Virus genome (UHGV): UHGV-0019417
From: a virus
Direction: 5' to 3' (one strand)
DNA length: 51,928 nucleotides
Made by a program: the position numbers and the translations under genes. The notes under the pieces were generated by a model. It made no database searches and was not told the DNA's origin. It worked only from the letters and a program-made list of their open reading frames with translations. Of the stretch, positions 31,913-51,591 are shown piece after piece. Numbering within the stretch: position 1 is the stretch's first letter; every line of letters starts with the position of its first letter.

Positions 31913-31998
31913 GCCTCAGTGGTGAAAGTGGTAGACACGAAAGACTTAAAATCTTTTAAACAGAAATGTTTGTGCAGGTTCGAATCCTGTCTGAGGTA
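31913..31998 (+). tRNA. tRNA-Leu (anticodon UAA), type II with a long variable arm
   Basis: acceptor GCCTCAG/CTGAGGT (G1-U72), D-arm GTG-AAAGTGGTAGA-CAC, anticodon arm AAAGA-CTTAAAA-TCTTT, 17-nt variable hairpin, T-arm GCAGG-TTCGAAT-CCTGT, discriminator A. Confidence 0.8.
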
Positions 31999-32020
31999 CA
32001 AAATTCTAAGATTAATTTAT

Positions 32021-38319: not shown

Positions 38320-39261
38320 ATGGAAAGAAAATATAAGCTAACTGATAAGCACATTCAATATAATAGGCACAAACTTTATCGAATACAGGCTCTTAAGTCT
38401 TTCGCTGATGTTAAAGAGGGAGATTTTGGTGGATACATAGAATCAGAGGATAATCTCTCGCATAATGGGACGTGTTGGGTCTATGATAATGCTGTGGTAT
38501 ACGACAATGCTAAAGTATTCGATAGTGCTAATGTATTTGGTAATGCTGTGGTATATGGCAATGCTGATGTACTTAATAATGCTGAGGTTTATAATACAGC
38601 TGAAGTATATGGCAATGCTAAAGTATATGGCAATGCTAAAGTGTATGGTTGTGCTGAGGTACATCGTAATGCTGAAGTGTATGGCTACGCCGAAGTGTAT
38701 GGTAATGCTGAAGTATATGATAATGCTGAAGTATGTGGCAATGCTAGAATCTGTGGTGATGCTAAGATATATGACTATGCTTGGGTCTATGGCAATGCTA
38801 AAATCAGTGGTGATGCTAATATCTATGATTATGCTAGAATCTGCGGTGATGCATATATTTTAGAAAATGCTAAAGCCTGTGACCACGTTAAGGTAAGTGG
38901 ATATGCTGAGATACGTGGCTATGCTAAGGTATACGGTATTGCTAAAGTACGTGGTGATGCTAAAGTATATGGTTATGCTGAAGTACATGGTAATGCTGAG
39001 GTATATGGCCATGCTGAAATGTACGGTAATGCTGCAGTCTGTGAAAATACTGATTACATAGTATTTAAAAACTGGTGGAGCAGCGGGCGATATTTCACAT
39101 GGACACGTAGTAATAATATGTGGAAGGTAGGATGTTTTTATGGTACAGGAGAAGAGCTAATAATGAAAGCATATAATGATAGTAAAGAAAGTGGAAGAGA
39201 ATACGAACGAGTTGTAAAATATGTTGAAAGCATACTTGCTGATGATAATTACGCAGAATAA
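38320..39261 (+). CDS. hexapeptide-repeat (predicted beta-helix) protein with C-terminal globular domain
   Basis: about 30 consecutive xVYGNA(E/K) hexads (aliphatic at i, small at i+4), encoded by 18-bp DNA tandem repeats 38480-39060; C-terminal 90 aa non-repetitive. Confidence 0.6.
   Translation: MERKYKLTDKHIQYNRHKLYRIQALKSFADVKEGDFGGYIESEDNLSHNGTCWVYDNAVVYDNAKVFDSANVFGNAVVYGNADVLNNAEVYNTAEVYGNAKVYGNAKVYGCAEVHRNAEVYGYAEVYGNAEVYDNAEVCGNARICGDAKIYDYAWVYGNAKISGDANIYDYARICGDAYILENAKACDHVKVSGYAEIRGYAKVYGIAKVRGDAKVYGYAEVHGNAEVYGHAEMYGNAAVCENTDYIVFKNWWSSGRYFTWTRSNNMWKVGCFYGTGEELIMKAYNDSKESGREYERVVKYVESILADDNYAE
38480..39060 (+). repeat. 18-bp coding tandem repeat array GTRTATGGYAATGCTRAR
   Basis: about 32 imperfect units in frame within the 38320..39261 CDS. 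Confidence 0.8.
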
Positions 39262-39263
39262 AT

Positions 39264-39641
39264 ATGATAAGAGAACAAGTAAAAGAGCTTCTGCCTATAA
39301 TAAAAGCTTACGCAGAAGGTAAAACAATACAATATTATTATGGAGATGCAGATTGGATAGATATTAATGGAGCTGTTGATTTTAGCGATAATCCTTCAAA
39401 ATATCGCATCAAGCCAGAATCAAAATATCGTCCATTTGCTAATAATGAAGAGTGTTGGAAAGAAATGCAAAAGCATCAACCTTTTGGATGGATAAAATCT
39501 AATGTGGATAAGCATCTTTATTCTATATTAGCAATCACAAACAATGGTTGTGTTCTTATAGATAGGAGTATAATTTCATTTCAACATTTTTATAAATACA
39601 ATACGTTTGCTGACGGTACGCCGTTTGGCTTTAAAGAATAA
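39264..39641 (+). CDS. hypothetical protein
   Basis: 125-aa ORF in the repeat-flanked cassette. Confidence 0.4.
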   Translation: MIREQVKELLPIIKAYAEGKTIQYYYGDADWIDINGAVDFSDNPSKYRIKPESKYRPFANNEECWKEMQKHQPFGWIKSNVDKHLYSILAITNNGCVLIDRSIISFQHFYKYNTFADGTPFGFKE

Positions 39642-39652
39642 AAACAATTACT

Positions 39653-40021
39653 ATGATTGAAGTATTAAACAAAGAAGTAGGAGGCGTGCATTATAAAAAC
39701 ATGAAAATGCAACCAATAGAATTGATTGTAAAAACAGATTTAAATTTTATACAAGGTTGCATAGTTAAATATATAACAAGATATAAAAATAAAAATGGTA
39801 AAGAAGATATTGAAAAAGCTATACACAATGCTCAATTAGCTATTGATTTACATTCAAATGGGCCAGATGATTGTATAAATGAAGGCTATGCGTATTGTAA
39901 AATAAATAAGCTTTCAAATTTACAAACAACAGTAATTATTTCTGCAATGCAAAATGATTATTACAAAGTAATAAAATATTGTTATAATATTTTAAAAAAT
40001 GAATACAAAAATCAAGATTAA
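39653..40021 (+). CDS. DUF3310-family protein
   Basis: 122 aa; N-terminal VHYKNMKMQPIELI matches the DUF3310 HY...QPIE signature common in phage nucleotide-metabolism regions. Confidence 0.45.
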   Translation: MIEVLNKEVGGVHYKNMKMQPIELIVKTDLNFIQGCIVKYITRYKNKNGKEDIEKAIHNAQLAIDLHSNGPDDCINEGYAYCKINKLSNLQTTVIISAMQNDYYKVIKYCYNILKNEYKNQD

Positions 40022-40048
40022 TGTTATCTAACTGAATTATTACAAAAA

Positions 40049-40093
40049 TTAACAGAAAAAATTTTATTGCTGAGTAAAAAATTATTATATTTG
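40049..40093 (+). promoter_or_regulatory. promoter with TTAACAG motif (-7 box at 40086-40093), inside repeat R2
   Basis: same architecture as 38231-38275. Confidence 0.5.
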
Positions 40094-40140
40094 CAGCATT
40101 AAAATAAAGCATTTATAACTTTTAAAATCAAAACAAAAAA

Positions 40141-41910
40141 ATGACTACAAACAACAATTATTTGCTAATTACACTAGGCCACAACTCATCTGCATTATTT
40201 ATTGATAACACAAACGGGTGTGACCAAAAAATTATTGGCTATGAACAAGAAAGACTTTCAAGAATTAAATCTGATAGCCAATTTCCATTTGATGCAATCA
40301 ATGAAATTAAAAAGCATGTACCATTTTCTAAATTAGAGGGATGCCAAATACGAATTTCTCACTGGTTTGATGACTTTCTTCCTTCTAGCAATAAGTATAT
40401 TGGTGAAAATGGATTCAGAATGCTAAAAGAAATTTCTACAAATATTGTAGATACTAATGGCAATGGCTTTACACACCATGACGCTCACGCTTATAGTGCA
40501 TATAATTTTATGCTAGAATCGAATACTGATTTGAAGTATTTTAACAAACCAATATATTGTATTGTAGCAGATGGTTTTGGTAATCAGCAAGAAGTTTTTT
40601 CAATTTACGCATTTACACCAAATATTGATACAAAACCAAAGTGTATTTTTAAATCCTACGGCTATTATCAATCTCTTGGTTTGATGTACCAATTTGCAAC
40701 ATCATTTGTTGGAATGAAAGAAAACCAAGATGAATATAAATTTTTAGGATATGAATCACATATCGCTGAAGTTTTAAGTGAGCAACAAATTGCAATGCTA
40801 ACATCTGTTGCTGAATTTGATTCTGACAAAATGATAAAAAGAATAAAAGAGTGCACAGAAAAAATTCAAATTTCAGATATTGATAAAAATATTGGAATCA
40901 GTATTTCTGATTTAGATAAAGCTCGAGATTTATTCAATCATTTATTCTCAAGAGTTTTTAAACATTTAGGCATTGATAAAGATAATAATATTCATATTTC
41001 AAGAGTTATAATGGGATATTATGTACAATGCATCATAGAATCTGTTATTACTAGCTTTATTGATGAATATGAAATGAATAATGTCTGCGTTGCTGGTGGA
41101 TGTTTCTACAATGTAAAATTAAACAATTCAATACTTGAAGCAATAGATGGTTATTTTAGTGCTATGCCTTTAGCAGGAGACCAAGGAGCAGCAATAGGAA
41201 TGTATGCAAAAGAAGTCGGATTTAATTCTAATATTTCTATTAAGTTTAATACGCTGAATTTTGGTAAAAGAAATTTCTATAATGCAGACAAACTAGTATC
41301 TAAAATAAACAATGCATATTATTTTACAAACAGTAAATATGCAGCTATGGCAATATCAGATTTTATTTCAAATGATTGTATTGTTAATATAATACATAAT
41401 GATATGGAATTTGGTCCAAGAGCATTGGGGCATACTTCAACTTTATTTTTGCCAACAGAAGAAAATGTGGCATTTGTAAATTATATAAATAACAGAAATG
41501 AAGTTATGCCATGTGCACCTATATGTACAATTGGAAGTGCTCATGATTTATTTGACATCTATGAATTATCAAGGACAGTCGGTTCTGATAGATTTATGAT
41601 TTGTACACATAAGTATATGAGAAAATATAATAAGCTTTATGGTGGTGTAATGCATAAAAAACCTTTGATTAAAGATTATACTGGAAGACCACAAATTGTA
41701 ACAAAAAATGAAAATTTCTTATATACAATTCTAGAATCTGTTAAAAAAGATACAGGCTATACATGCTTAGTTAATACTAGTTTTAATGTACATGGCCAAC
41801 CTATTGTATTTGATATACACAGTATTATTCAGAATTTTATGTATCAGCAAGCACAAACTTATACGCATAAATTCAATAAAAAAGTTGTATTGGTAATTAT
41901 TAATGATTAA
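40141..41910 (+). CDS. carbamoyltransferase, NodU/CmcH/TobZ family (Kae1-like N-domain plus YrdC-like C-domain)
   Basis: 589 aa; N-terminus LLITLGHNSSALFID....IIGYEQERLSRIKSDSQFPFDAI matches the carbamoyltransferase N-terminal signature (LG.HDS..AL...G....A..EER..R.K.D..FP). Confidence 0.65.
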   Translation: MTTNNNYLLITLGHNSSALFIDNTNGCDQKIIGYEQERLSRIKSDSQFPFDAINEIKKHVPFSKLEGCQIRISHWFDDFLPSSNKYIGENGFRMLKEISTNIVDTNGNGFTHHDAHAYSAYNFMLESNTDLKYFNKPIYCIVADGFGNQQEVFSIYAFTPNIDTKPKCIFKSYGYYQSLGLMYQFATSFVGMKENQDEYKFLGYESHIAEVLSEQQIAMLTSVAEFDSDKMIKRIKECTEKIQISDIDKNIGISISDLDKARDLFNHLFSRVFKHLGIDKDNNIHISRVIMGYYVQCIIESVITSFIDEYEMNNVCVAGGCFYNVKLNNSILEAIDGYFSAMPLAGDQGAAIGMYAKEVGFNSNISIKFNTLNFGKRNFYNADKLVSKINNAYYFTNSKYAAMAISDFISNDCIVNIIHNDMEFGPRALGHTSTLFLPTEENVAFVNYINNRNEVMPCAPICTIGSAHDLFDIYELSRTVGSDRFMICTHKYMRKYNKLYGGVMHKKPLIKDYTGRPQIVTKNENFLYTILESVKKDTGYTCLVNTSFNVHGQPIVFDIHSIIQNFMYQQAQTYTHKFNKKVVLVIIND

Positions 41911-41916
41911 GCAAAA

Positions 41917-42576
41917 ATGAAAAAGCTATATACTCCATACATTGTAGCTTTTTCTGGTGGTTGTTTTTCTGGTAAAACAACCACCATTAAAAAAATTGCT
42001 GAAAAATTAAGGCAACTTGGCTATACTGTATATGTTTTAAATGAAAATATAAGGGACAAAAATGTATTTAGAAAAGCAGGTAATATAGATAATATTAGGC
42101 AAGACCCGAATTCTTATTTGCTTTTACAAAATGAAATAATAAGAGAAAAAATAGAAAATGAAAATGAAATATTGGGAGTTAAATACACTACTAAAACTAT
42201 AATTTTAGTTGATAGGGCTTTAACTGATTCATTGTTTTATTTATCATGCTATGTTGACAAAGTTAATCTAACACTAGAAAATAAAAAAACATTTAAGCAT
42301 CTGTTTAGTTATATTTATATGATTCTTTTACTCAGTAAAAGGTATGATAAAGTATTAGAATTTAGGCCTATAAAAATTGAAAATATCGATAAATACAGGC
42401 CTAAAGATTTAGAGCATTTGCACTTTTTTGAGTATGAAATGATTCATTGCCTTAACAATAATTTTTTTGATAAAAGCATTATGGAAAAAAATATAAACAT
42501 AAAGCAAGAAAGCTGTATAGATAATTTAGTAAATAATATAATAAGAGATTATGCAATTAAACAACGAACAAATTAA
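41917..42576 (+). CDS. P-loop kinase, deoxynucleotide/deoxynucleoside-kinase-like; candidate modified-dNMP or 5-hmdU DNA kinase
   Basis: Walker A AFSGGCFSGKTTT; DRA lid-like motif (VDRALTD). Confidence 0.5.
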   Translation: MKKLYTPYIVAFSGGCFSGKTTTIKKIAEKLRQLGYTVYVLNENIRDKNVFRKAGNIDNIRQDPNSYLLLQNEIIREKIENENEILGVKYTTKTIILVDRALTDSLFYLSCYVDKVNLTLENKKTFKHLFSYIYMILLLSKRYDKVLEFRPIKIENIDKYRPKDLEHLHFFEYEMIHCLNNNFFDKSIMEKNINIKQESCIDNLVNNIIRDYAIKQRTN

Positions 42577-43333
42577 AAATTTAATAACATCTCCACATTG
42601 GCAAAAAATATTTAAGCAATTATATAATTCAAAAAATTCAGAAAATGATAGCTGTTTTGAGTTAATCGGATTTCAATATTCATTTAACCCACGAAAAAAT
42701 TATATAATATCAAGAAATAAATTAGTTTTTGATATAGAGAAAGCTGCAAAAATGTATTATTGGTATAAAAATAAAAACAGTAGTGATAAATCAATAATTG
42801 ATAGCTTTCCTGAATATGAAAATTGTTTTTATGGAGGAAAATTTTTAAGTAAACAAAAATGCAATTCTAATTATGGAATATATGCATATAATAAAAATGG
42901 ATTAGATTTTTGTATTGAAAAGTTAAAAGCAAATTATAAAACAAGGCAAGCTTGCTTTTGTATAAATAATAATAAAGCAATGTCTTCACCAGATAAACTT
43001 TGTACAAATACAATTCATTTTAATATAAAAAATGAGAGACTGATTATGGTTATACAAATGAGGTCATCAAATTTTTTAACTTTACTTCCTTATGATATTT
43101 TTAACTTTACAATTTTTTATGCTTATGTGTATGAAGCTTTAAGAGATTATTATTTTAATTTGAAAACGTGCGATATTGTAATGCAAATAAACTCATTGCA
43201 CTGTTATACAAAAGATTTAATAAAAGCTATTGGTATAAAAGATTTATCTTATCCAAATAATCTTTTAAGCTTTTCTGTTAAAAAAATAATAAATAATTTT
43301 GAAAATAATTTAAAAAGATGCAACGAACAATGA
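42551..43333 (+). CDS. divergent ThyA-family protein (thymidylate synthase / pyrimidine hydroxymethylase fold)
   Basis: IQMRSSNFLTLLPYDIFNFTIFYA aligns to ThyA QRSxDxFLGxPFNIASYALL; Cys in QACFC aligns to PCH; the residue at the ThyA Asn177 position is not Asn/Asp. Confidence 0.5.
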   Translation: MQLNNEQIKNLITSPHWQKIFKQLYNSKNSENDSCFELIGFQYSFNPRKNYIISRNKLVFDIEKAAKMYYWYKNKNSSDKSIIDSFPEYENCFYGGKFLSKQKCNSNYGIYAYNKNGLDFCIEKLKANYKTRQACFCINNNKAMSSPDKLCTNTIHFNIKNERLIMVIQMRSSNFLTLLPYDIFNFTIFYAYVYEALRDYYFNLKTCDIVMQINSLHCYTKDLIKAIGIKDLSYPNNLLSFSVKKIINNFENNLKRCNEQ

Positions 43334-43839
43334 CACCAGGAAAATTTAGATTTACAAAAGTACGTGATGTAAAATCACCAGTTAGAGGTACAAACTTATC
43401 TGCTGGTATTGATTTTTTTGTACCAAAAGATTTTAAGCCATTTGTTCTTTTGCCACATAAGGATGTGTTAATCCCGTCTGGTATTAAAGCCTCATTTGAA
43501 AAAGTTTGTATGCTAATGGCAGCAGAAAAATCAGGCGTAACAAGCTCAGCTGAAGCAAAAGCTATTTCTAATATGGATGCTAATAATTCATACCAATCAC
43601 CTACAGTTTTAGGAGCAAAGATTGTTGATGCAGATTATCAAGGAGAAATACACATCCACATTATAAATGTAGGTAATAAACCTATTCTTATTGAGCCAGA
43701 CAAGAAAATAGCTCAGTTTATTTTAGTGCCTGTTTTATATTGCGAAATTGAAGAGATAGATTCAGAAAAAGAATTGTTCGCAAATGAATGCTCTTCTCGT
43801 GGTAACAAAGGTTTTGGTAAAGGAACTGGTGAAAATTAA
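43318..43839 (+). CDS. dut: dUTPase (trimeric dUTPase/dCTP-deaminase superfamily)
   Basis: motif I SAGIDF, motif III GAKIVDADYQGE, motif IV IAQFILVPV. Confidence 0.8.
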   Translation: MQRTMTPGKFRFTKVRDVKSPVRGTNLSAGIDFFVPKDFKPFVLLPHKDVLIPSGIKASFEKVCMLMAAEKSGVTSSAEAKAISNMDANNSYQSPTVLGAKIVDADYQGEIHIHIINVGNKPILIEPDKKIAQFILVPVLYCEIEEIDSEKELFANECSSRGNKGFGKGTGEN

Positions 43840-43844
43840 ATGAT

Positions 43845-44297
43845 ATGACAATTGGAAAAGCTTTAGAGTTAGTAGACACTCCTGTATTTTTGCAGAATGT
43901 TGAAAAATACTTAAATAAATGGCTATATTTAGCTAAATTGCCCAATGGGCCGTTAGGAAGATGGCTTTGTGAATATCAGCAAATGGAAGATAAAGGATTA
44001 TTTAAGCCTGCTATCTTTAAAGCTTTTTATAAATTAGAATTGCAAAGCAAGTTAAATATAGGCTTTATAAAAAGTTGTCCAGTTCATTATGTTGGTGTAT
44101 ATGCTATGGATGATACATATTTATATTATAGCTTACGAGAGCATAGTTATAAAATATGTGTTATTACAGGAGAAATAGCATGTGATGATGATGGTGATGA
44201 TTTAATAGGTTTATCTTATGATGAAGCTAAAGAAATTTGTGATTCTATGAATATTGAAGCTGAAGAAAAATTATTTAAAATAATGGTAAATGATTAG
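43845..44297 (+). CDS. hypothetical protein
   Basis: 150-aa ORF inside the nucleotide-metabolism cluster; acidic C-terminus. Confidence 0.4.
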   Translation: MTIGKALELVDTPVFLQNVEKYLNKWLYLAKLPNGPLGRWLCEYQQMEDKGLFKPAIFKAFYKLELQSKLNIGFIKSCPVHYVGVYAMDDTYLYYSLREHSYKICVITGEIACDDDGDDLIGLSYDEAKEICDSMNIEAEEKLFKIMVND

Positions 44298-44949
44298 TCT
44301 AATATGTAAAAATGCTACAGAAGCTTTTGAGATATTGTATGAAACAATTTCAAGAGTTGGCCAATCTACTAATATAGATACAAAAGCTATTTATAATGTA
44401 AGTATTGAAATACAAAATCCAACCGATAGAAATATAACAACACATTGGAGAAAATGGAGTAAAAAATATGCTGAAAGAGAATGGAACTGGTATTTATCAG
44501 CAAATCCTTCTGTACAAGAAATTAAAAAGTTTGCTCCTATGTGGGATAAAATGCACAGCGGAAATAATATTGTAAATTCAAATTATGGCTTCCAATGGTC
44601 AAGAAACAAGCAACTACAAAAAGTAATTGAACAACTACAAAAAAATCCTAATTCTCGTCAAGCATGGATTACTATCTACGATGGAAAAGAAAAAGATAAT
44701 TATGATTTTGATACACCTTGCACATTAGCTGTAGGATTTGATATAAAGCCAAATAGCGAATCAGTTGATATGACAGTGTGTATGAGGTCAAATGATTTAA
44801 TATATGGATTTTGTAATGACCAGTATTGTTTTAGTAAATTACAAGAATATGTAGCTCATCTTTTAAACAGGCCAGTTGGAACATATACTCATTTTGCACA
44901 TGACATGCATATTTATAATAATAAACTTAACTTAAAAAATTATGAATAA
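44290..44949 (+). CDS. ThyA-family enzyme, uracil-type (thymidylate synthase or dUMP hydroxymethylase)
   Basis: YGFQWS, NPNSRQAWITIY, catalytic DTPCTL (PCH equivalent), MRSNDLIYGFCNDQYCF (QRSxD..G.PFN), HIYNN with Asn at the ThyA N177 position; short at 219 aa. Confidence 0.75.
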   Translation: MISLICKNATEAFEILYETISRVGQSTNIDTKAIYNVSIEIQNPTDRNITTHWRKWSKKYAEREWNWYLSANPSVQEIKKFAPMWDKMHSGNNIVNSNYGFQWSRNKQLQKVIEQLQKNPNSRQAWITIYDGKEKDNYDFDTPCTLAVGFDIKPNSESVDMTVCMRSNDLIYGFCNDQYCFSKLQEYVAHLLNRPVGTYTHFAHDMHIYNNKLNLKNYE

Positions 44950-45148
44950 AATAACAAACTCAACACTAGTATTTTGTCTTTGGACTTTAGTAGGTATTAT
45001 TTATTTTCCAATATTTCTTTTAGCATGGTTGCTAAAAATAGTAGCTAGAATATTATTAGCAATTGCTTATTTTGGAATGTTAAACAAACAAATGGGAAAA
45101 ATGGTATTTAAATCAATTTTCTTTAATCCTTATGAACGAACTTTCTGA
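44942..45148 (+). CDS. small membrane protein
   Basis: 68 aa, two hydrophobic helices. Confidence 0.35.
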   Translation: MNKITNSTLVFCLWTLVGIIYFPIFLLAWLLKIVARILLAIAYFGMLNKQMGKMVFKSIFFNPYERTF

Positions 45149-45881
45149 TAAAGAATTAAGTAGCTTCCTGCAAGAATTAAACAAGCAGGAAGCTTCTGAA
45201 CTTCCACAAGATTTGTTAAATGATGATGCTTGGGGATATAGTAGACAAGAAAATAAAACAGGCTTTGTAATATCTACAAAAGCTGAATTAAAAGAAAAAG
45301 CAAAAAAATTACAAAAACAAAAAACTGATTATAATTATAAAAAGAAACAACGTAAACAACAAATAATAAATGAAGCTATAAATTCTTTTGATATAGATTT
45401 ACATGCATTACTGCCTATTCAAGAAAAGAAAAAACTAATAAGCTTATTAACAAATAAGTATACCGAATTGATGGTTAAGCAAGAGCAATATATCAACAAT
45501 AGAGTTAATATGTATTTGCAAAAGCTTATTCCAAACGATGTAATGCGAATGTGGTCAAAAGATAAAGATTTAATGGTACCACTAATTGAGTTTGAGTATA
45601 TAGCTTCAGAAGAATTTGGTAATGGGCTACATTTCAAAATATCAGCTGATGTTCCAATGTATTTTAAGCAAGAAGATTGCATGAATTTACTCAATGAGCA
45701 TTTTGGTGATAGGTTATGGAATATTGATAAAGCTGTAGCTTTCTTTTATAAGTATAAGAATACAAGAACACAACAAGAAGTTAAAATAGCTCAAACCCTT
45801 GTTAGTATAAATACATATTATGATTTATTAAAGAAAAAGCCTTTTTGGTTTGAATTATTACAAAACAATATAGAAAAATAG
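45132..45881 (+). CDS. hypothetical protein
   Basis: 249-aa ORF. Confidence 0.4.
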   Translation: MNELSDKELSSFLQELNKQEASELPQDLLNDDAWGYSRQENKTGFVISTKAELKEKAKKLQKQKTDYNYKKKQRKQQIINEAINSFDIDLHALLPIQEKKKLISLLTNKYTELMVKQEQYINNRVNMYLQKLIPNDVMRMWSKDKDLMVPLIEFEYIASEEFGNGLHFKISADVPMYFKQEDCMNLLNEHFGDRLWNIDKAVAFFYKYKNTRTQQEVKIAQTLVSINTYYDLLKKKPFWFELLQNNIEK

Positions 45882-45884
45882 AAT

Positions 45885-46535
45885 ATGTTAGAAATTTCAA
45901 ATATTAAAGTTTACGATTTAAAAGAATCAATAATTGCTTGTAGAAATGCTATGAGACTAGATATGCCTTCGTACTCTGATGAAGAGTTTAATAAAGGTTT
46001 AGAAAGAGCAAAGAAACTATGCAAATCTGGTAGTGGGCATGCTAATTTTAGAAAAGGTATTCGTGTATCTTTTGATATGAAATATACACAGTATATAACA
46101 AAACAGTTTCAACGTTATCATTTTTTTGATTATGTATCAAGCAGTAGCTTAATGCATAGAATTACAAAAATGGACTTTACAAAATGCTGTAATAAATATG
46201 TCGATGATAGGGTTATTGCAATCATGCAAGAACTAATTTCTGATTATAATATTGGAAAAGAAAAATCAGAAATTATAATAAAGCAAAATTTAACAAAATA
46301 TACTGAAAAAGAAATTGAAAGCATTAAAAATCAGCTTTATACTTCTTGGATGAAAATTATATCTAATTGTCCTATGGGGTGTGAATTATTTACTAGAGTT
46401 TCAACAAACTATGAACAATTAGCTACTATATATAAACAACGTAAAAATCATAAATTAAAAGAAGATTGGGGAACATTTATTAAATTTATAGACAATTTAC
46501 CATACTCAGATGAATTGATAAAATGTACAAACTAG
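45885..46535 (+). CDS. hypothetical protein, possibly ThyX-like (flavin-dependent thymidylate synthase fold), weak
   Basis: GHANF..GIRVSF...TQYITKQFQRY loosely resembles ThyX HASF..GISRV...HQLVRHR...SQRY, but the RHR motif is not conserved. Confidence 0.25.
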   Translation: MLEISNIKVYDLKESIIACRNAMRLDMPSYSDEEFNKGLERAKKLCKSGSGHANFRKGIRVSFDMKYTQYITKQFQRYHFFDYVSSSSLMHRITKMDFTKCCNKYVDDRVIAIMQELISDYNIGKEKSEIIIKQNLTKYTEKEIESIKNQLYTSWMKIISNCPMGCELFTRVSTNYEQLATIYKQRKNHKLKEDWGTFIKFIDNLPYSDELIKCTN

Positions 46536-46966
46536 ATAAATCAAAAGCCGTAGAATTGGATATTTCAAATGATGCTTTTTATTTATTTACAGAAGATGAT
46601 GAACCGATAGATGAATCATGTTATGATGAAATAAATAATTTATATGCAAAATATGAATCATTTGAAATAGAAAAAATAAAAGAATTAAATAACGGCTTAA
46701 TTAAAGTACTGTTAATTCCTTATGTAGAAACAAATCAATCATGGGATTATTTTATTTCTATGTTTAATAACTGGATATTAAATATAAAAATATTATCTGA
46801 AACAGAAGTTTTAATACAGAGTGAACAAGTAAGTACAGGCAAAATCAGTTATTGTGTAAAAGGGCAAATTATAGAATTACATTGTAAAAAATGGATTAAA
46901 TATAAAATTACAGAAACACAAAAAGTTTATAACCAAATACCTTTATTTAAAGCCAATAAATATTAA
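46523..46966 (+). CDS. hypothetical protein
   Basis: 147-aa ORF, last gene before the bidirectional terminator. Confidence 0.4.
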   Translation: MYKLDKSKAVELDISNDAFYLFTEDDEPIDESCYDEINNLYAKYESFEIEKIKELNNGLIKVLLIPYVETNQSWDYFISMFNNWILNIKILSETEVLIQSEQVSTGKISYCVKGQIIELHCKKWIKYKITETQKVYNQIPLFKANKY

Positions 46967-47040
46967 GATTATTTTTGGAATTATTTTTAATTCTGTGATG
47001 ATTTTATTATAAAAACGTATTATAAATCGCCTTTATATTT

Positions 47041-47082
47041 AAAACGTCTCCAGAGCGCTCAGAATAGTCCTGGAGACGTTTT
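47041..47082. terminator. bidirectional intrinsic terminator
   Basis: AAAACGTCTCCAG ... CTGGAGACGTTTT: 9-bp stem flanked by an A-run and a T-run. Confidence 0.7.
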
Positions 47083-47153
47083 AAATCTTTTCATTAGCTA
47101 CTTTTCAATTAAAATTTAAAAATTAATGATTTTAAACAGTTAATTAATAATCA

Positions 47154-47198
47154 TTAACTGTAAAAACTTTTACTATTGCAATATTATTTATATATTTG
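47154..47198 (+). promoter_or_regulatory. promoter with CAGTTAAT/ATTAACTG palindrome (-7 box TATATTTG at 47191-47198)
   Basis: TTAACTG ends 30 nt before the -7 box; ATTAACTGTAAAAACTTTTA nearly identical to 49043-49062. Confidence 0.5.
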
Positions 47199-47233
47199 CA
47201 GTATTAAAAATAATCATTAAAACAGCTTTTAAA

Positions 47234-47566
47234 ATGAAAAATTTAGGACTTATTTTTATTGATTCTCTACAAAGTGTATCAATTGCTAGTATACAGTATG
47301 ACGATAAACAAACTGGAGAATTCAAATTGCAGGATGAATTTTCTGCACAAGGGTATTGGTTTAAAACATTAGACGACATACTCAATAACATTAAAGAAGT
47401 TGACTTTATAAGGCACCAGGTTGAAAGAAAAAATGGAAAAAATATTATAGTTTATTTACAAAGTTATGAACAAAGAATGTATTCACTTCCACCAAAAATT
47501 ATAAATATTGATTATACACCATTTTCATCAAAAATTTATCACATTGATTATAAAACTCTTATATAA
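47234..47566 (+). CDS. hypothetical protein
   Basis: 110-aa ORF. Confidence 0.4.
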   Translation: MKNLGLIFIDSLQSVSIASIQYDDKQTGEFKLQDEFSAQGYWFKTLDDILNNIKEVDFIRHQVERKNGKNIIVYLQSYEQRMYSLPPKIINIDYTPFSSKIYHIDYKTLI

Positions 47567-48789: not shown

Positions 48790-49026
48790 ATGATACAAAA
48801 GAAATTTTTAATGATGTCCACTAAGAAACTCCAAGCTATCTTGGCAACAGCTAGTGATGAAGACAGAGTAGAAATTCAAGCTCTTATTGAAAAAAGATTA
48901 TTAAATTTATATGACCCAGAATATAAATATACATTTAGAAATATATGGAATATCAATAACATTAAAGGCCTACTAATTCGAGTTAAATTTGCTTTAAAAA
49001 AGTTAATAAAAAATGCACGATTTTAA
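48790..49026 (+). CDS. hypothetical protein; N-terminal 35 aa paralogous to 49143..50225
   Basis: MIQKKFLMMSTKKLQAILATASDEDRVEIQALIEKR against MTQKKFSQMPTKKLQALLATASDEDRVEIQAIIDKR; upstream about 25 nt also duplicated. Confidence 0.45.
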   Translation: MIQKKFLMMSTKKLQAILATASDEDRVEIQALIEKRLLNLYDPEYKYTFRNIWNINNIKGLLIRVKFALKKLIKNARF

Positions 49027-49142: not shown

Positions 49143-50225
49143 ATGACACAGAAGAAATTTTCTCAAATGCCTACTAAGAAACTTCAAGCTCTTTTGGCAA
49201 CAGCTAGTGATGAAGACAGAGTAGAAATTCAGGCAATTATAGATAAGCGTAATGCTGTTTCAATGCCTGCTACAGTAGAGGCTTCTCTTTCAGAAGAGGA
49301 ACAAAAAGCTGTAGATGAAGCAGCAAGTGATTCTACTACAAAACCAAAGCCTTCACGTAAAAAGGCTCCTCAGCTTACAAATGAACAGCGCATAGCTCTT
49401 GCAGAATCAATGCGTGCAGAAGCACTTCATCATAAGTGTGAGGTTGTTCCTTTCAATACTTGTGAATGGGTTCCTGGTGTTGTTGTAGGAGTTATTGAAG
49501 AGAAGCGTAACAATAAATGCCTTTATGCAATTAAGACAGAAGATGGTCGTCGAGTAGTTAAAGCTTATGGCTCTGACCTTGTTAAAATTCTTGATGAAGT
49601 TGTTGAGCCTGTTAAGAAAGAACGTAAAAGCCGCGTAAAGCTTGATGAAAATGGTAATCCTATTCCTTCTATTGCTAAAGAGCCTCTTGGTGAATGGCTT
49701 CCTGAAGAAATTGAAGCTGCTATTAACGAAGTAATTGCAAACGTAGGTAAGACAATTACTTATCCTAAGGCAGGTGCAATGGGTGTTAAGCTTGAAGGAG
49801 AAGAATCAGGTCGTATTGTATCACTTGTTCCTAACAAGAGACAACATACAATTCTTTATAGAATTGAAGTTGACCAAGAAGATTCTGAAGCTCCCAAGAA
49901 GTATGCTCATAAGGTTACTTCAAATGAAGACCTTAAGATTGCAGATGAGCTTGATGAAGTAGGTGCTAAGATTAATGAAGCTTTTGTTAAGCGCCATAAT
50001 GGGGAGCATAAACCTCGTATAGCTAAAACTCCTGCTGAAGCCCTTGAGTACGCAAAGGTAATGCTTGAAAAAGCTAAAGAGCAACTGAAAAAAGCTGAAA
50101 TAAATGTAGGAAAACGAAATGAAGCTTTTAAGCTTGCTCAAGAAATGTTTGAAAAGTCACAGCAGAATGTTGAAAATACTGATGCTGAAAGTACTGAAGT
50201 TTCAACAGAAGATGATTTGATGTAG
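49143..50225 (+). CDS. hypothetical protein, acidic, in a locally GC-elevated segment
   Basis: 360-aa ORF; GC visibly higher (about 40%) than surroundings; N-terminus duplicated in 48790..49026. Confidence 0.5.
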   Translation: MTQKKFSQMPTKKLQALLATASDEDRVEIQAIIDKRNAVSMPATVEASLSEEEQKAVDEAASDSTTKPKPSRKKAPQLTNEQRIALAESMRAEALHHKCEVVPFNTCEWVPGVVVGVIEEKRNNKCLYAIKTEDGRRVVKAYGSDLVKILDEVVEPVKKERKSRVKLDENGNPIPSIAKEPLGEWLPEEIEAAINEVIANVGKTITYPKAGAMGVKLEGEESGRIVSLVPNKRQHTILYRIEVDQEDSEAPKKYAHKVTSNEDLKIADELDEVGAKINEAFVKRHNGEHKPRIAKTPAEALEYAKVMLEKAKEQLKKAEINVGKRNEAFKLAQEMFEKSQQNVENTDAESTEVSTEDDLM

Positions 50226-50571: not shown

Positions 50572-50880
50572 TTATATATGCAAAGCAAGTATAAACTGCT
50601 TTGTATTTTTACCATAATTATTATGTGTTTCACTTATTAAACTAACAGGAAAATCATTAATAATTTTGGTAATAAAATTATTTATTTGTTTTTCAACATT
50701 TGGTTTTATAGCATTACTACTACAAAATGTAATAGTAATATCCATATAACCTCCTGGCCCAAATGCTCTAGACCCACAATGCCATGAAACCAAATCTAAT
50801 TTCAATTTTGTACAGAGCTTATCTGCTAAATCTCTAATTTGGTTGTAAGCATTGATTTCTTCTTGAGTTTCATTTATCAT
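50572..50880 (-). CDS. hypothetical small early protein
   Basis: 102-aa ORF overlapping the upstream gene by 11 nt (operon). Confidence 0.45.
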   Translation of the reverse strand: MINETQEEINAYNQIRDLADKLCTKLKLDLVSWHCGSRAFGPGGYMDITITFCSSNAIKPNVEKQINNFITKIINDFPVSLISETHNNYGKNTKQFILALHI

Positions 50881-51166
50881 TGAGCATTTTGTTTATGGCT
50901 AAGTTTGATTTGATTGTTTTCAATAAATCATTCAAATCAAATTTAACATAGTCAATTAAGCCTGGTTCTGTATCAAAGTGAGCTTCATACTTATCTATTA
51001 AAAACAAAGCGAAGTTATATATCGTAAACAAATCTCTAAAGCTTGTATTACTAATAGCCTCGTAAGTCTTAATAATCATATCAAGGTCTTCTTTGCTAAA
51101 CCAACACATCAAATCGACTTGCAAAAATATAGCCAACTTGTGTTTACTTTTCTCATCTAATTTCAT
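50870..51166 (-). CDS. hypothetical small early protein; paralog of 51274..51591
   Basis: 98 aa; shares WFSKEDL..I.K.YEA.S.T.F and INKMLN C-terminus with 51274..51591; preceded by class-A leader. Confidence 0.5.
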   Translation of the reverse strand: MKLDEKSKHKLAIFLQVDLMCWFSKEDLDMIIKTYEAISNTSFRDLFTIYNFALFLIDKYEAHFDTEPGLIDYVKFDLNDLLKTIKSNLAINKMLNDK

Positions 51167-51290
51167 AATTTTAGGGTTGTTTTATGTTCTAGGCAATGTC
51201 GCCTATTGTTCCCTATAGCAGATTCGAACTGCTCTACTTTCGTATCCACCCAACTGTGGCTAGGGATATAAGCCTAATTAGACTTATTAA
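51167..51290 (-). repeat. class-A leader repeat copy (d); tRNA-like core at 51211-51265
   Basis: CATAATTTTAGGGTTGTTTTATGTTCTAGGCAATGTCGCCTATTGTTCCCTATAGCAGATTCGAACTGCTCTACTTTCGTATCCACCCAACTGTGGCTAGGGATATAAGCCT, near-identical to copies b and c. Confidence 0.8.
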
Positions 51291-51591
51291 GCATTTTATT
51301 TATAACATAACTAGGTTTAGTTGCTCTTAACAACCTAGTTAGCTCAAATCTAATAAAATCAAATGCTTCTTGGCTTTCTACGTTAAAGCCCGCATTAACA
51401 TATTGATTTATCAAAAACCAAGCGAAATTACGTGTCTTAGTTTTCGTAGGTGCTTCAAATTTAGTAGAGCTAAGAGCCTCGTATACTTTCATAATAAAAG
51501 CGAGGTCTTCTTTGCTAAACCAAGACATCATATTGACCTCATACACTTTAGTGATAAAAACGAGGTCTTTACGTCCTTCAGTTGATTCCAT
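51274..51591 (-). CDS. hypothetical small early protein; paralog of 50870..51166
   Basis: 105-aa ORF preceded by class-A leader copy (c). Confidence 0.5.
   Translation of the reverse strand: MESTEGRKDLVFITKVYEVNMMSWFSKEDLAFIMKVYEALSSTKFEAPTKTKTRNFAWFLINQYVNAGFNVESQEAFDFIRFELTRLLRATKPSYVINKMLNKSN

Follow-up and report, generated by a model that had tools for sequence, protein, structure and literature searches.

Why does a phage genome carry a carbamoyltransferase gene at the head of a run of nucleotide-metabolism genes? The question is raised by the virus genome UHGV-0019417, a 51.9-kb phage sequence analysed here over its whole length (the window). The block at positions 40141-44949 encodes, in this order, a carbamoyltransferase, a P-loop kinase, a first ThyA-like protein (ThyA1), a dUTPase homolog, a 150-aa protein and a second ThyA-like protein (ThyA2). 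It was read, with a probability of about 0.72, as a nucleotide-pool and DNA-modification cassette that puts 5-carbamoyloxymethyl-deoxycytidine (5cmdC) in place of deoxycytidine in the phage genome. Homologies, catalytic residues, the kinase fold and gene linkage were established in this analysis, and the activity is that of a homolog of 31% identity characterised by Yang et al.; from these we infer the substrate of each window protein, the order of the steps, the extent of cytosine replacement and any role of ThyA1 or the 150-aa protein. An earlier note on this DNA had proposed that a 5-hydroxymethyl pyrimidine is made and then O-carbamoylated, and this is still the best reading in view of the homology to the enzyme of Yang et al., the residues of ThyA2 and the gene linkage. 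The open reading frames (ORFs) of that note were all confirmed, and its family assignments were broadly right when compared with Pfam and PHROG.

The carbamoyltransferase and its relatives

The 589-aa product of the first gene matched both carbamoyltransferase domains of Pfam over their cut-offs (Carbam_trans_N, 1.8e-17, 64.3 bits; Carbam_trans_C, 4.9e-31, 108 bits), as well as the PHROG 'Nol-like carbamoyltransferase' (1.6e-61). It was aligned with the enzyme of Yang et al. 2021, for which the sequence printed in PMC8670742 was used, and the two are 31% identical from end to end over 579 aa (E 4e-78, 245 bits). Solved O-carbamoyltransferases, the best being NovN, GdmN and TobZ, scored ≤64 bits against the window protein, and the NodU model of NCBIfam 69 bits. 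In a collection of 50,697 cultured phage records a clear gap separated the clade (271-510 bits) from the carbamoyltransferases of cyanophages and jumbo phages (≤97 bits), and the clade matches came from six Bacteroides fragilis phages (48% identity), Xanthomonas phage Xp15 (35%) and three Acinetobacter phages (36%). On homology, the protein belongs to a discrete subfamily, which takes in 235 (E ≤ 1e-30) of the 5920 relatives detected at E ≤ 0.001 among 1.84 billion representatives.

The motifs TLGHNS, FTHHDAHA, DGFGN, SLGLMYQ-ATSF-GMKENQDEYKFLGYE and GG-FYNVK were common to the window protein, the characterised enzyme and the related loci in an alignment, together with MPLAGDQGAA, NRNEVMP-AP, TGRPQ and NTSFN-HG-PI, and all were absent from the carbamoyltransferases of cyanophage S-SSM7 and Ralstonia phage RsoM2USA. 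With TobZ, NodU, CmcH and NovN the protein shares the domain architecture and the HHDxH, DGFG, AGDQG, GPR and NTSFN motifs, of which we take the first three to be metal ligands in TobZ and the last two to line the carbamoyl-phosphate/ATP site. It differs from them in its scores to the solved members, in the residues I/G/T for W/G/R near the carbamoyl-phosphate pocket, and in its predicted acceptor, a nucleobase substituent and not a sugar or antibiotic. The most discriminating positions were reported to be TobZ W408, G421 and R423 (Yang et al. 2021, PMC8670742). These were equated with W, G and R of WxxGxxEFGPRALGNRS via spacing and alignment offsets, not via the TobZ sequence, and under this mapping the characterised enzyme reads I/C/T, the window protein I/G/T and S-SSM7 W/G/R, and among the 134 clade members the first residue is aliphatic, the second C (105) or G (24) and the third T (129). 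Judged on its sequence, the 589-aa protein is a member of the clade of the Yang et al. enzyme, the caveats being the low identity and the Gly.

In phage contigs from sewage and from coastal samples, Yang et al. (eLife 2021) found carbamoyltransferase domains to be associated with cytosine modification, and these domains co-occurred with thymidylate synthase homologs on modified contigs alone (PMC8670742). With carbamoyl phosphate and ATP, the purified enzyme converted 5-hydroxymethyl-dC (5hmdC) to 5-carbamoyloxymethyl-dC in single-stranded DNA, less in duplex; it was also active on 5hmdCTP and RNA, and inactive on 5mdCTP and 5hmdUTP (PMC8670742). Both the enzyme and 5-carbamoyloxymethylcytosine (5cmC) were therefore already described in that paper, although the earlier note had held a carbamoyltransferase-dependent DNA base modification to be undescribed. 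The mass shift given in that note, about 73 Da over the 5-hydroxymethyl base, also has to be corrected: carbamoylation adds 43.006 Da to that base, and 73.016 Da is the shift relative to unmodified dC.

Gene linkage points in the same direction. The cultured B. fragilis phages (OP172667-OP172672) show the same six-gene order, as do many metagenomic contigs, and 16 of 18 fetched related loci keep it as far as each reaches. A clade carbamoyltransferase gene lies beside a ThyA gene with Asp at position 177 in 9/9 related loci extending far enough, and also in Xp15 and Acinetobacter phage Effie; the window has two such ThyA genes within 3 kb of its carbamoyltransferase gene, and the distant carbamoyltransferase loci, Xp15 and Effie a single, canonical one. 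In Xp15 and Effie the carbamoyltransferase gene is followed by a MazG-like gene (by eye), in Effie by a P-loop kinase gene, then by the Asp177 ThyA and a dCMP deaminase gene. The Effie kinase, thymidylate-kinase-like by eye, is different from that of the window. MazG-like pyrophosphatase and dCMP deaminase are both in the co-occurrence list of Yang et al. (PMC8670742), and these two phages of Proteobacteria are candidates for native 5cmC DNA. Literature searches for the B. fragilis phages, and for carbamoyltransferases of Bacteroides phages, found nothing relevant.

The two ThyA-like proteins and the target base

Residues were numbered by alignment with T4 gp42 and with an E. coli ThyA sequence that fits the literature numbering at 14 marker residues. 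ThyA2 is identical to T4 gp42 at E58, Y94, R126, C146, T147, R166, S167, D169, D177, H207 and Y209, and among solved proteins it matches the CMP hydroxymethylase MilA (6.4e-15) and T4 dCMP hydroxymethylase (4.8e-12) best. In its motif RSNDLIYGFCND the Asn that had been placed at the uracil-specifying position is residue 176, and the position of E. coli N177 is taken by Asp. The C-terminal segment of thymidylate synthase closes the active site for hydride transfer. ThyA2 has no such closing tail, with 10 residues after the HIY motif, which fits a hydroxymethylase, and a 5-hydroxymethyl-dCMP (5hm-dCMP) product is indirectly supported by the missing tail and by the linkage to an enzyme needing a hydroxyl acceptor. 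At the ThyA2 position of one related metagenomic locus (L030, 4387-5019), a 210-aa protein had a precomputed Pfam match to PF26128 (Gad2), not to Thymidylat_synt.

ThyA1 was assigned to the family by PHROG alone, and its best PDB match was T4 dCMP hydroxymethylase (2.2e-5). Its PCH and N177 positions had been described as altered; Cys146 is in fact kept, Thr147 and Asp177 are as in T4 gp42, and R126, R166, S167, H207 and Y209 are also present. The true changes are Glu58 to Met and Asp169 to Asn. They are features of the whole family (n=104), in which position 58 is M/I/L/V in 104/104 members and position 169 is Asn in 103/104, with C146, T147, R126, R166, D177 and H207 invariant. In the ThyA family, proton relay and the binding of folate depend centrally on Glu58 and Asp169. 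Because both are lost, one-carbon transfer by ThyA1 is unlikely, and while a ThyA fold is predicted from the sequence, the label of a hydroxymethylase is not expected to apply.

ThyA positions 177 (Asn to Asp) and 147 are those most associated with modification (PMC8670742). Since both window paralogs have Asp, not Asn, at E. coli position 177 and the characterised carbamoyltransferase is inactive on 5hmdUTP, the target base is taken to be cytosine, where 'dT or dC' had been proposed before. Neither paralog has the Asn177 of a thymidylate synthase, and the idea that one of the two serves in that role does not hold here.

The conservation of ThyA1 leaves some room for another end product. It is possible, though unlikely, that 5cmC or 5-hydroxymethylcytosine (5hmC) is just an intermediate, and that ThyA1 attacks C6 of 5hm-dCMP or 5-carbamoyloxymethyl-dCMP (5cm-dCMP), expels the C5-methylene substituent and lets another nucleophile add, so that the cytosine of virion DNA would bear another substituent at C5. 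Purifying selection on ThyA1 is clear, with the residues at 58 and 169 changed and the nucleotide-binding residues and Cys invariant as given above. It was found solely in the Bacteroides-phage-like group, always inside the six-gene cassette with its gene overlapping those of the kinase and the dUTPase homolog, and is accompanied by the uncharacterised 150-aa protein. Carbamate is a good leaving group, ThyA1 is without the folate and proton-relay residues, and Cys-dependent exchange via an exocyclic methylene is established for aGPT-Pplase-type transferases acting on 5-phosphomethyl-dU (PMC8989533). Against this, no enzyme that would supply the nucleophile or tailor the base (pyridoxal-phosphate-dependent, radical SAM or amidoligase) was found in the cassette by Pfam, the distant phages make do with a carbamoyltransferase, a kinase and one canonical Asp177 ThyA, and it is equally conceivable that ThyA1 partners ThyA2 without being catalytic itself, or that it is a regulator that binds nucleotides. 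A new folate-free ThyA-fold enzyme, the Cys of which would add at C6 and swap the C5-methylene substituent of 5hm-dCMP or 5cm-dCMP, is thus a tentative proposal of low probability.

The kinase, the nucleotide pool and the remaining readings

In the kinase, SGGCFSGKT forms the Walker A motif, and a conserved DR(A)LTDSxFY resembles the DRY motif of thymidylate kinase (TMPK). Pfam gave AAA_28 (7.9e-9) and a weak match to Thymidylate_kin of 20 bits, which is under the cut-off and does not support membership of that sequence family. Across 44 homologs S13-G14-x-C16-x-S18-G19-K20, R46 and D99-R100 are invariant, and a lid arginine, R161, is present in at least 90%. As the matches of the profile to PDB sequences were weak (kinases, E 0.04-0.1), a structure model was used. 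The AlphaFold2 model made with the 44 homologs (pLDDT 89.4, pTM 0.87) was searched against the PDB with Foldseek, and thymidylate kinases made up nearly all of the top matches (E from 1.6e-6, TM 0.5-0.65), with deoxynucleoside kinases and NadR coming next. Compared with named proteins, the family profile had no similarity to T4 gp1 (1.1 bits), the P-loop alone in common with the 5-hydroxymethyl-deoxyuridine (5hmdU) DNA kinase PaMx11 gp49 (5-HMUDK; 2.6 bits) and nothing beyond the P-loop in common with Effie gp370. The protein is most likely, going by its model, the kinase for the modified monophosphate, which would do the job of T4 gp1 with a member of another kinase family. The function of a 5hmdU DNA kinase, put forward in the earlier note, does not agree with these comparisons, nor with the finding of no aGPT-Pplase-type transferase in the 50 window ORFs scanned.

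In tblastn against the 50,697 phage records, kinase homologs were present in the six B. fragilis phages alone, and 64 homologs were found in a large protein collection, some with a weak deoxynucleoside-kinase domain match. Of the 15 related loci reaching past the carbamoyltransferase gene, 14 have the kinase gene adjoining it; in one (L018) the kinase gene is the upstream gene. In four distant locus types (L009/L010, L011, L017 and L018), all with a single ThyA gene, the kinase homolog is fused to a C-terminal family-4-like uracil-DNA-glycosylase (UDG) domain. This domain is supported in L009, L011 and L018 by Pfam UDG matches (3e-12 to 7e-7) and the motifs GEAPG and HP[TA], and in L017, where the contig breaks off within the gene, by an alignment and by tblastn. 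Solved family-4 UDGs are matched by the profile too. A search of the window with the fused domains of L009, L011 and L018 gave no UDG-like domain.

These fusions raise the question whether the kinase acts on DNA and phosphorylates 5hmC in the polymer, as 5-HMUDK does 5hmdU, in an activating or alternative step beside carbamoylation. We consider this improbable. The UDG fold binds DNA and flips bases, with one exception the loci reaching past the carbamoyltransferase gene have the kinase gene next to it, and the characterised carbamoyltransferase prefers single-stranded DNA; yet that enzyme works without prior phosphorylation, the model of the kinase matches thymidylate and deoxynucleoside kinases, which are enzymes of free nucleotides, the TMPK-like DR motif and lid arginine are present, similarity to PaMx11 gp49 is lacking, and the UDG-like domain is nowhere in the window.

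The dUTPase homolog scored 52 bits against the Pfam dUTPase family (cut-off 22); its 74.9 bits against NCBIfam dut fall short of the equivalog threshold (103). Solved trimeric dUTPases can be aligned with it from end to end; it has ~15 residues inserted behind motif II, and motif II itself reads KSG in place of RSG. Base selection in the trimeric dUTPase family rests on backbone contacts. T4 gp56 was dropped as a model for this protein, gp56 being all-alpha by eye from its sequence and hence of a different fold. For the 150-aa protein no match was found in Pfam, PHROGs or NCBIfam, or in the PDB with a nine-sequence profile.

Taken together as a pathway to 5cmdC, ThyA2 would convert dCMP to 5hm-dCMP with its Cys nucleophile and methylene-tetrahydrofolate, like T4 gp42. 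The kinase would phosphorylate the modified monophosphate, which host kinases possibly refuse, thus taking the part of T4 gp1 though unrelated to it, and the host nucleoside-diphosphate kinase would make the modified triphosphate. The dUTPase homolog would clear dUTP, and possibly dCTP, from the pool and give back monophosphates. The carbamoyltransferase would form carbamoyl-adenylate from carbamoyl phosphate and ATP and move the carbamoyl group onto the 5-hydroxymethyl oxygen, with either 5hmdCTP as its substrate, ahead of polymerisation, or the nascent DNA while single-stranded. The result would be a bulky, uncharged major-groove adduct on cytosines that blocks restriction enzymes.

Several points weigh against this pathway. 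Identity to the characterised enzyme is just 31%, and Gly at the equated TobZ position 421 is the minority state of the clade (24/134), Cys being commoner. The kinase-UDG fusions of the distant relatives fit a DNA-level enzyme better than a pool kinase. A MazG-type dCTPase and a dCMP deaminase were not recognised in the window, though present in Xp15, Effie and the contigs of Yang et al., so full replacement of cytosine hinges on a putative dCTPase activity of the dUTPase homolog. ThyA1 and the 150-aa protein are conserved and fit no proposed step, and the end product could be different from 5cmC.

Two further readings were weighed. It is very improbable that the carbamoyltransferase is an auxiliary gene directed at sugars, antibiotic-like metabolites or the cell surface, with the ThyA homologs alone giving 5hmC DNA: although the NodU/TobZ/CmcH superfamily mostly modifies small molecules, PHROGs uses the category 'moron, auxiliary metabolic gene' and such a role is assumed for cyanophage carbamoyltransferases, the window protein is in the DNA-modifying clade, far from cyanophage and bacterial carbamoyltransferases, its gene is embedded in a nucleotide-metabolism and replication module, and the Asp177 ThyA linkage extends across unrelated phage backbones. 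The moron function was rejected on the clade placement and this linkage. Thymidine hypermodification, in which 5hmdU would be made, phosphorylated in DNA and substituted, was rejected as hardly credible, for although a P-loop kinase, ThyA-like genes and a dUTPase are superficially like the M6, ViI and PaMx11 clusters, it is already contradicted by Asp177 in both ThyA paralogs, whereas the PaMx11 dUMP hydroxymethylase has Asn177, by a kinase unrelated to 5-HMUDK, by the absence of an aGPT-Pplase-type transferase from the Pfam results for the 50 ORFs, and by the inactivity of the characterised carbamoyltransferase on 5hmdUTP.

Genome setting and comparison with known systems

Table 1. Positions of the cassette genes and neighbours in the window, and of the features named in related loci
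Sequence	Positions	Strand	Feature	Basis
Window	39653-40021		DUF3310 gene	Pfam E 3.9e-8
Window	40141..41910	+	Predicted 5-hydroxymethylcytosine O-carbamoyltransferase, NodU/TobZ superfamily, phage 5hmC-specific clade	589 aa; domains and homology
Window	41917..42576	+	Thymidylate-kinase-like P-loop nucleotide kinase, predicted 5hm-dCMP (or 5cm-dCMP) kinase	Model fold and motifs
Window	42551..43333	+	Divergent ThyA paralog, ThyA1	PHROG thymidylate synthase 8.5e-15; nucleotide-binding residues and Cys kept
Window	43318..43839	+	Trimeric-type dUTPase homolog (putative dUTP, possibly dCTP, pyrophosphatase)	Pfam dUTPase 7.8e-14
Window	43845..44297	+	Conserved 150-aa protein within the cassette	Between dUTPase and ThyA2 genes in all close relatives
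Window	44290..44949	+	Predicted dCMP 5-hydroxymethylase, T4 gp42-like, ThyA2	Pfam Thymidylat_synt 1.4e-23, 83.8 bits
Window	45885..46535	+	ThyX-fold protein, phrog_6721, cassette neighbour	Predicted fold
L009	9742-11028		Kinase-UDG fusion
L010	8624-9910		Kinase-UDG fusion
L011	9532-10863		Kinase-UDG fusion
L017	9425-10393 (contig end)		Kinase-UDG fusion
L018	6009-7460		Kinase-UDG fusion
NC_007024	25868-39487		Xanthomonas phage Xp15 locus (L019)
MW176033	23825-37396		Acinetobacter phage Effie locus (L020)

The window has a G+C content of 29.6%, lower than the 33.6% of the related B. fragilis phage locus, and C makes up 13.2% of its + strand, which carries nearly all of its genes. Genes for terminase, capsid and tail are followed by lysis genes, a replication module (DUF2800 nuclease, Enc34-type single-strand-binding protein, family A polymerase, VapE-type primase-helicase, VRR-NUC and SNF2 helicase) and the carbamoyltransferase block. 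Judging solely from the relatives, the host is presumably of Bacteroides type. The cassette genes are tightly packed, with stop/start overlaps running from the kinase gene through ORF 46523, but as the whole genome is co-directional the packing alone is no proof of an operon. A scan of 39500-47400 gave promoters and terminators at chance level (61 found against 63 expected, and 1 against 2, respectively); it does not cover Bacteroides promoters and is uninformative on operon structure. No DNA methyltransferase domain was found among the 50 window ORFs scanned, as the earlier note had said, which is consistent with base replacement as the anti-restriction strategy.

Downstream of the cassette, ORF 45885 had been called weakly ThyX-like. 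Its predicted fold bears this out, as the top 50 Foldseek matches of the AlphaFold2 model (pLDDT 82.6) were all ThyX; a sequence match and membership of the conserved cassette were not borne out. No Pfam Thy1 match was obtained at E ≤ 0.1, no ThyX was found with the family profile in the PDB, and hhalign against a T. maritima ThyX sequence gave a probability of 5%. The position of the RHR signature reads R77-Y78-H79 in a by-eye alignment, so that the protein differs from ThyX and the UMP/dUMP methylase PolB both in this motif and in its missing match to Pfam Thy1 or PDB ThyX. The family has 2955 homologs at E ≤ 0.001, the best 120 of which are 59-99% identical, and no Pfam annotation. As a homolog was absent from all the carbamoyltransferase-bearing relatives (L001-L018), ORF 45885 was regarded as a neighbour and not as a conserved part of the pathway. 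One may speculate that it supplies dTMP, as neither ThyA paralog has Asn177.

Other features of the window were recorded outside the cassette. Between the SNF2 helicase and DUF3310 genes, positions 38320-39261 encode a 313-aa protein that consists almost wholly of the hexapeptide-like repeat YGNA[EK]V, for which an 18-nt unit is repeated in tandem ~29 times, with weak Pfam matches to beta-solenoid, bactofilin and hexapeptide families. ARAGORN called a tRNA-Leu (anticodon TAA) at 31913-31999, overlapping the beginning of the family A polymerase ORF as listed (GTG start 31874); the call may be false, or else the true start of the polymerase lies further downstream. Paralogous ORFs come in two pairs. 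The 78-aa and 360-aa proteins of 48790-49026 and 49143-50225 are nearly identical over their first ~35 residues (…KKLQA-LATASDEDRVEIQA-I-KR), and the minus-strand ORFs 50870-51166 and 51274-51591 have the motif …M-WFSKEDL--I-K-YEA-S-T-F in common.

Compared with the system of Yang et al., the window has a two-domain (Kae1-like and YrdC-like) carbamoyltransferase of the same subfamily with the clade motifs, a linked ThyA homolog with Asp177 and Thr147, and a predicted 5cmdC product made from carbamoyl phosphate and ATP. It differs in having a trimeric dUTPase homolog, a thymidylate-kinase-like kinase, ThyA1 and the 150-aa protein where the other has MazG-like and dCMP deaminase genes, in the Gly, not Cys, at the equated TobZ position 421, and in its Bacteroides-type lineage with cultured relatives. 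With the T4 pathway it shares a ThyA-fold dCMP hydroxymethylase (Cys, Thr147, Asp177), a dedicated kinase, a pool-sanitising pyrophosphatase and the decoration of the 5-hydroxymethyl oxygen, predicted here to be with carbamoyl and in T4 with glucose. The window has an additional ThyA paralog, a kinase of thymidylate-kinase-like fold without sequence similarity to gp1, and a pyrophosphatase of the trimeric dUTPase type in contrast to the all-alpha gp56 (by eye). The thymidine hypermodification clusters of M6, ViI and PaMx11 (PMC8989533) likewise combine a ThyA-like hydroxymethylase, a P-loop kinase and tailoring enzymes in a replication module. Unlike them, the window is predicted to target cytosine and not uracil, has a kinase of another family and no aGPT-Pplase-type transferase, and would activate the donor, as carbamoyl-adenylate, whereas the clusters phosphorylate the acceptor.

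The core of the cassette is most likely a further example of the 5cmC system described in 2021, and its core chemistry would not be new. For this clade, the annotation 'Nol-like carbamoyltransferase / moron' is misleading. The accessory enzymes appear interchangeable between lineages, with a thymidylate-kinase-like enzyme for a gp1-type kinase and a trimeric dUTPase for the MazG type. The conserved residue pattern of ThyA1, at odds with folate-dependent one-carbon transfer, offers a concrete target for enzymology, and if the exchange proposed for it is true, ThyA1 and the 150-aa protein would give the Bacteroides-phage lineage a cytosine hypermodification different from or beyond 5cmC. 5cmC was discovered by metagenome association and made in vitro, and no report of 5cmdC in the virion DNA of an isolated phage was found in Yang et al. 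or elsewhere in the literature searched. The window and the cultured B. fragilis phages place the predicted 5cmC pathway in a cultivable gut phage-host system, in which one could measure directly the native modification, how complete it is and how it affects Bacteroides restriction and other defences.

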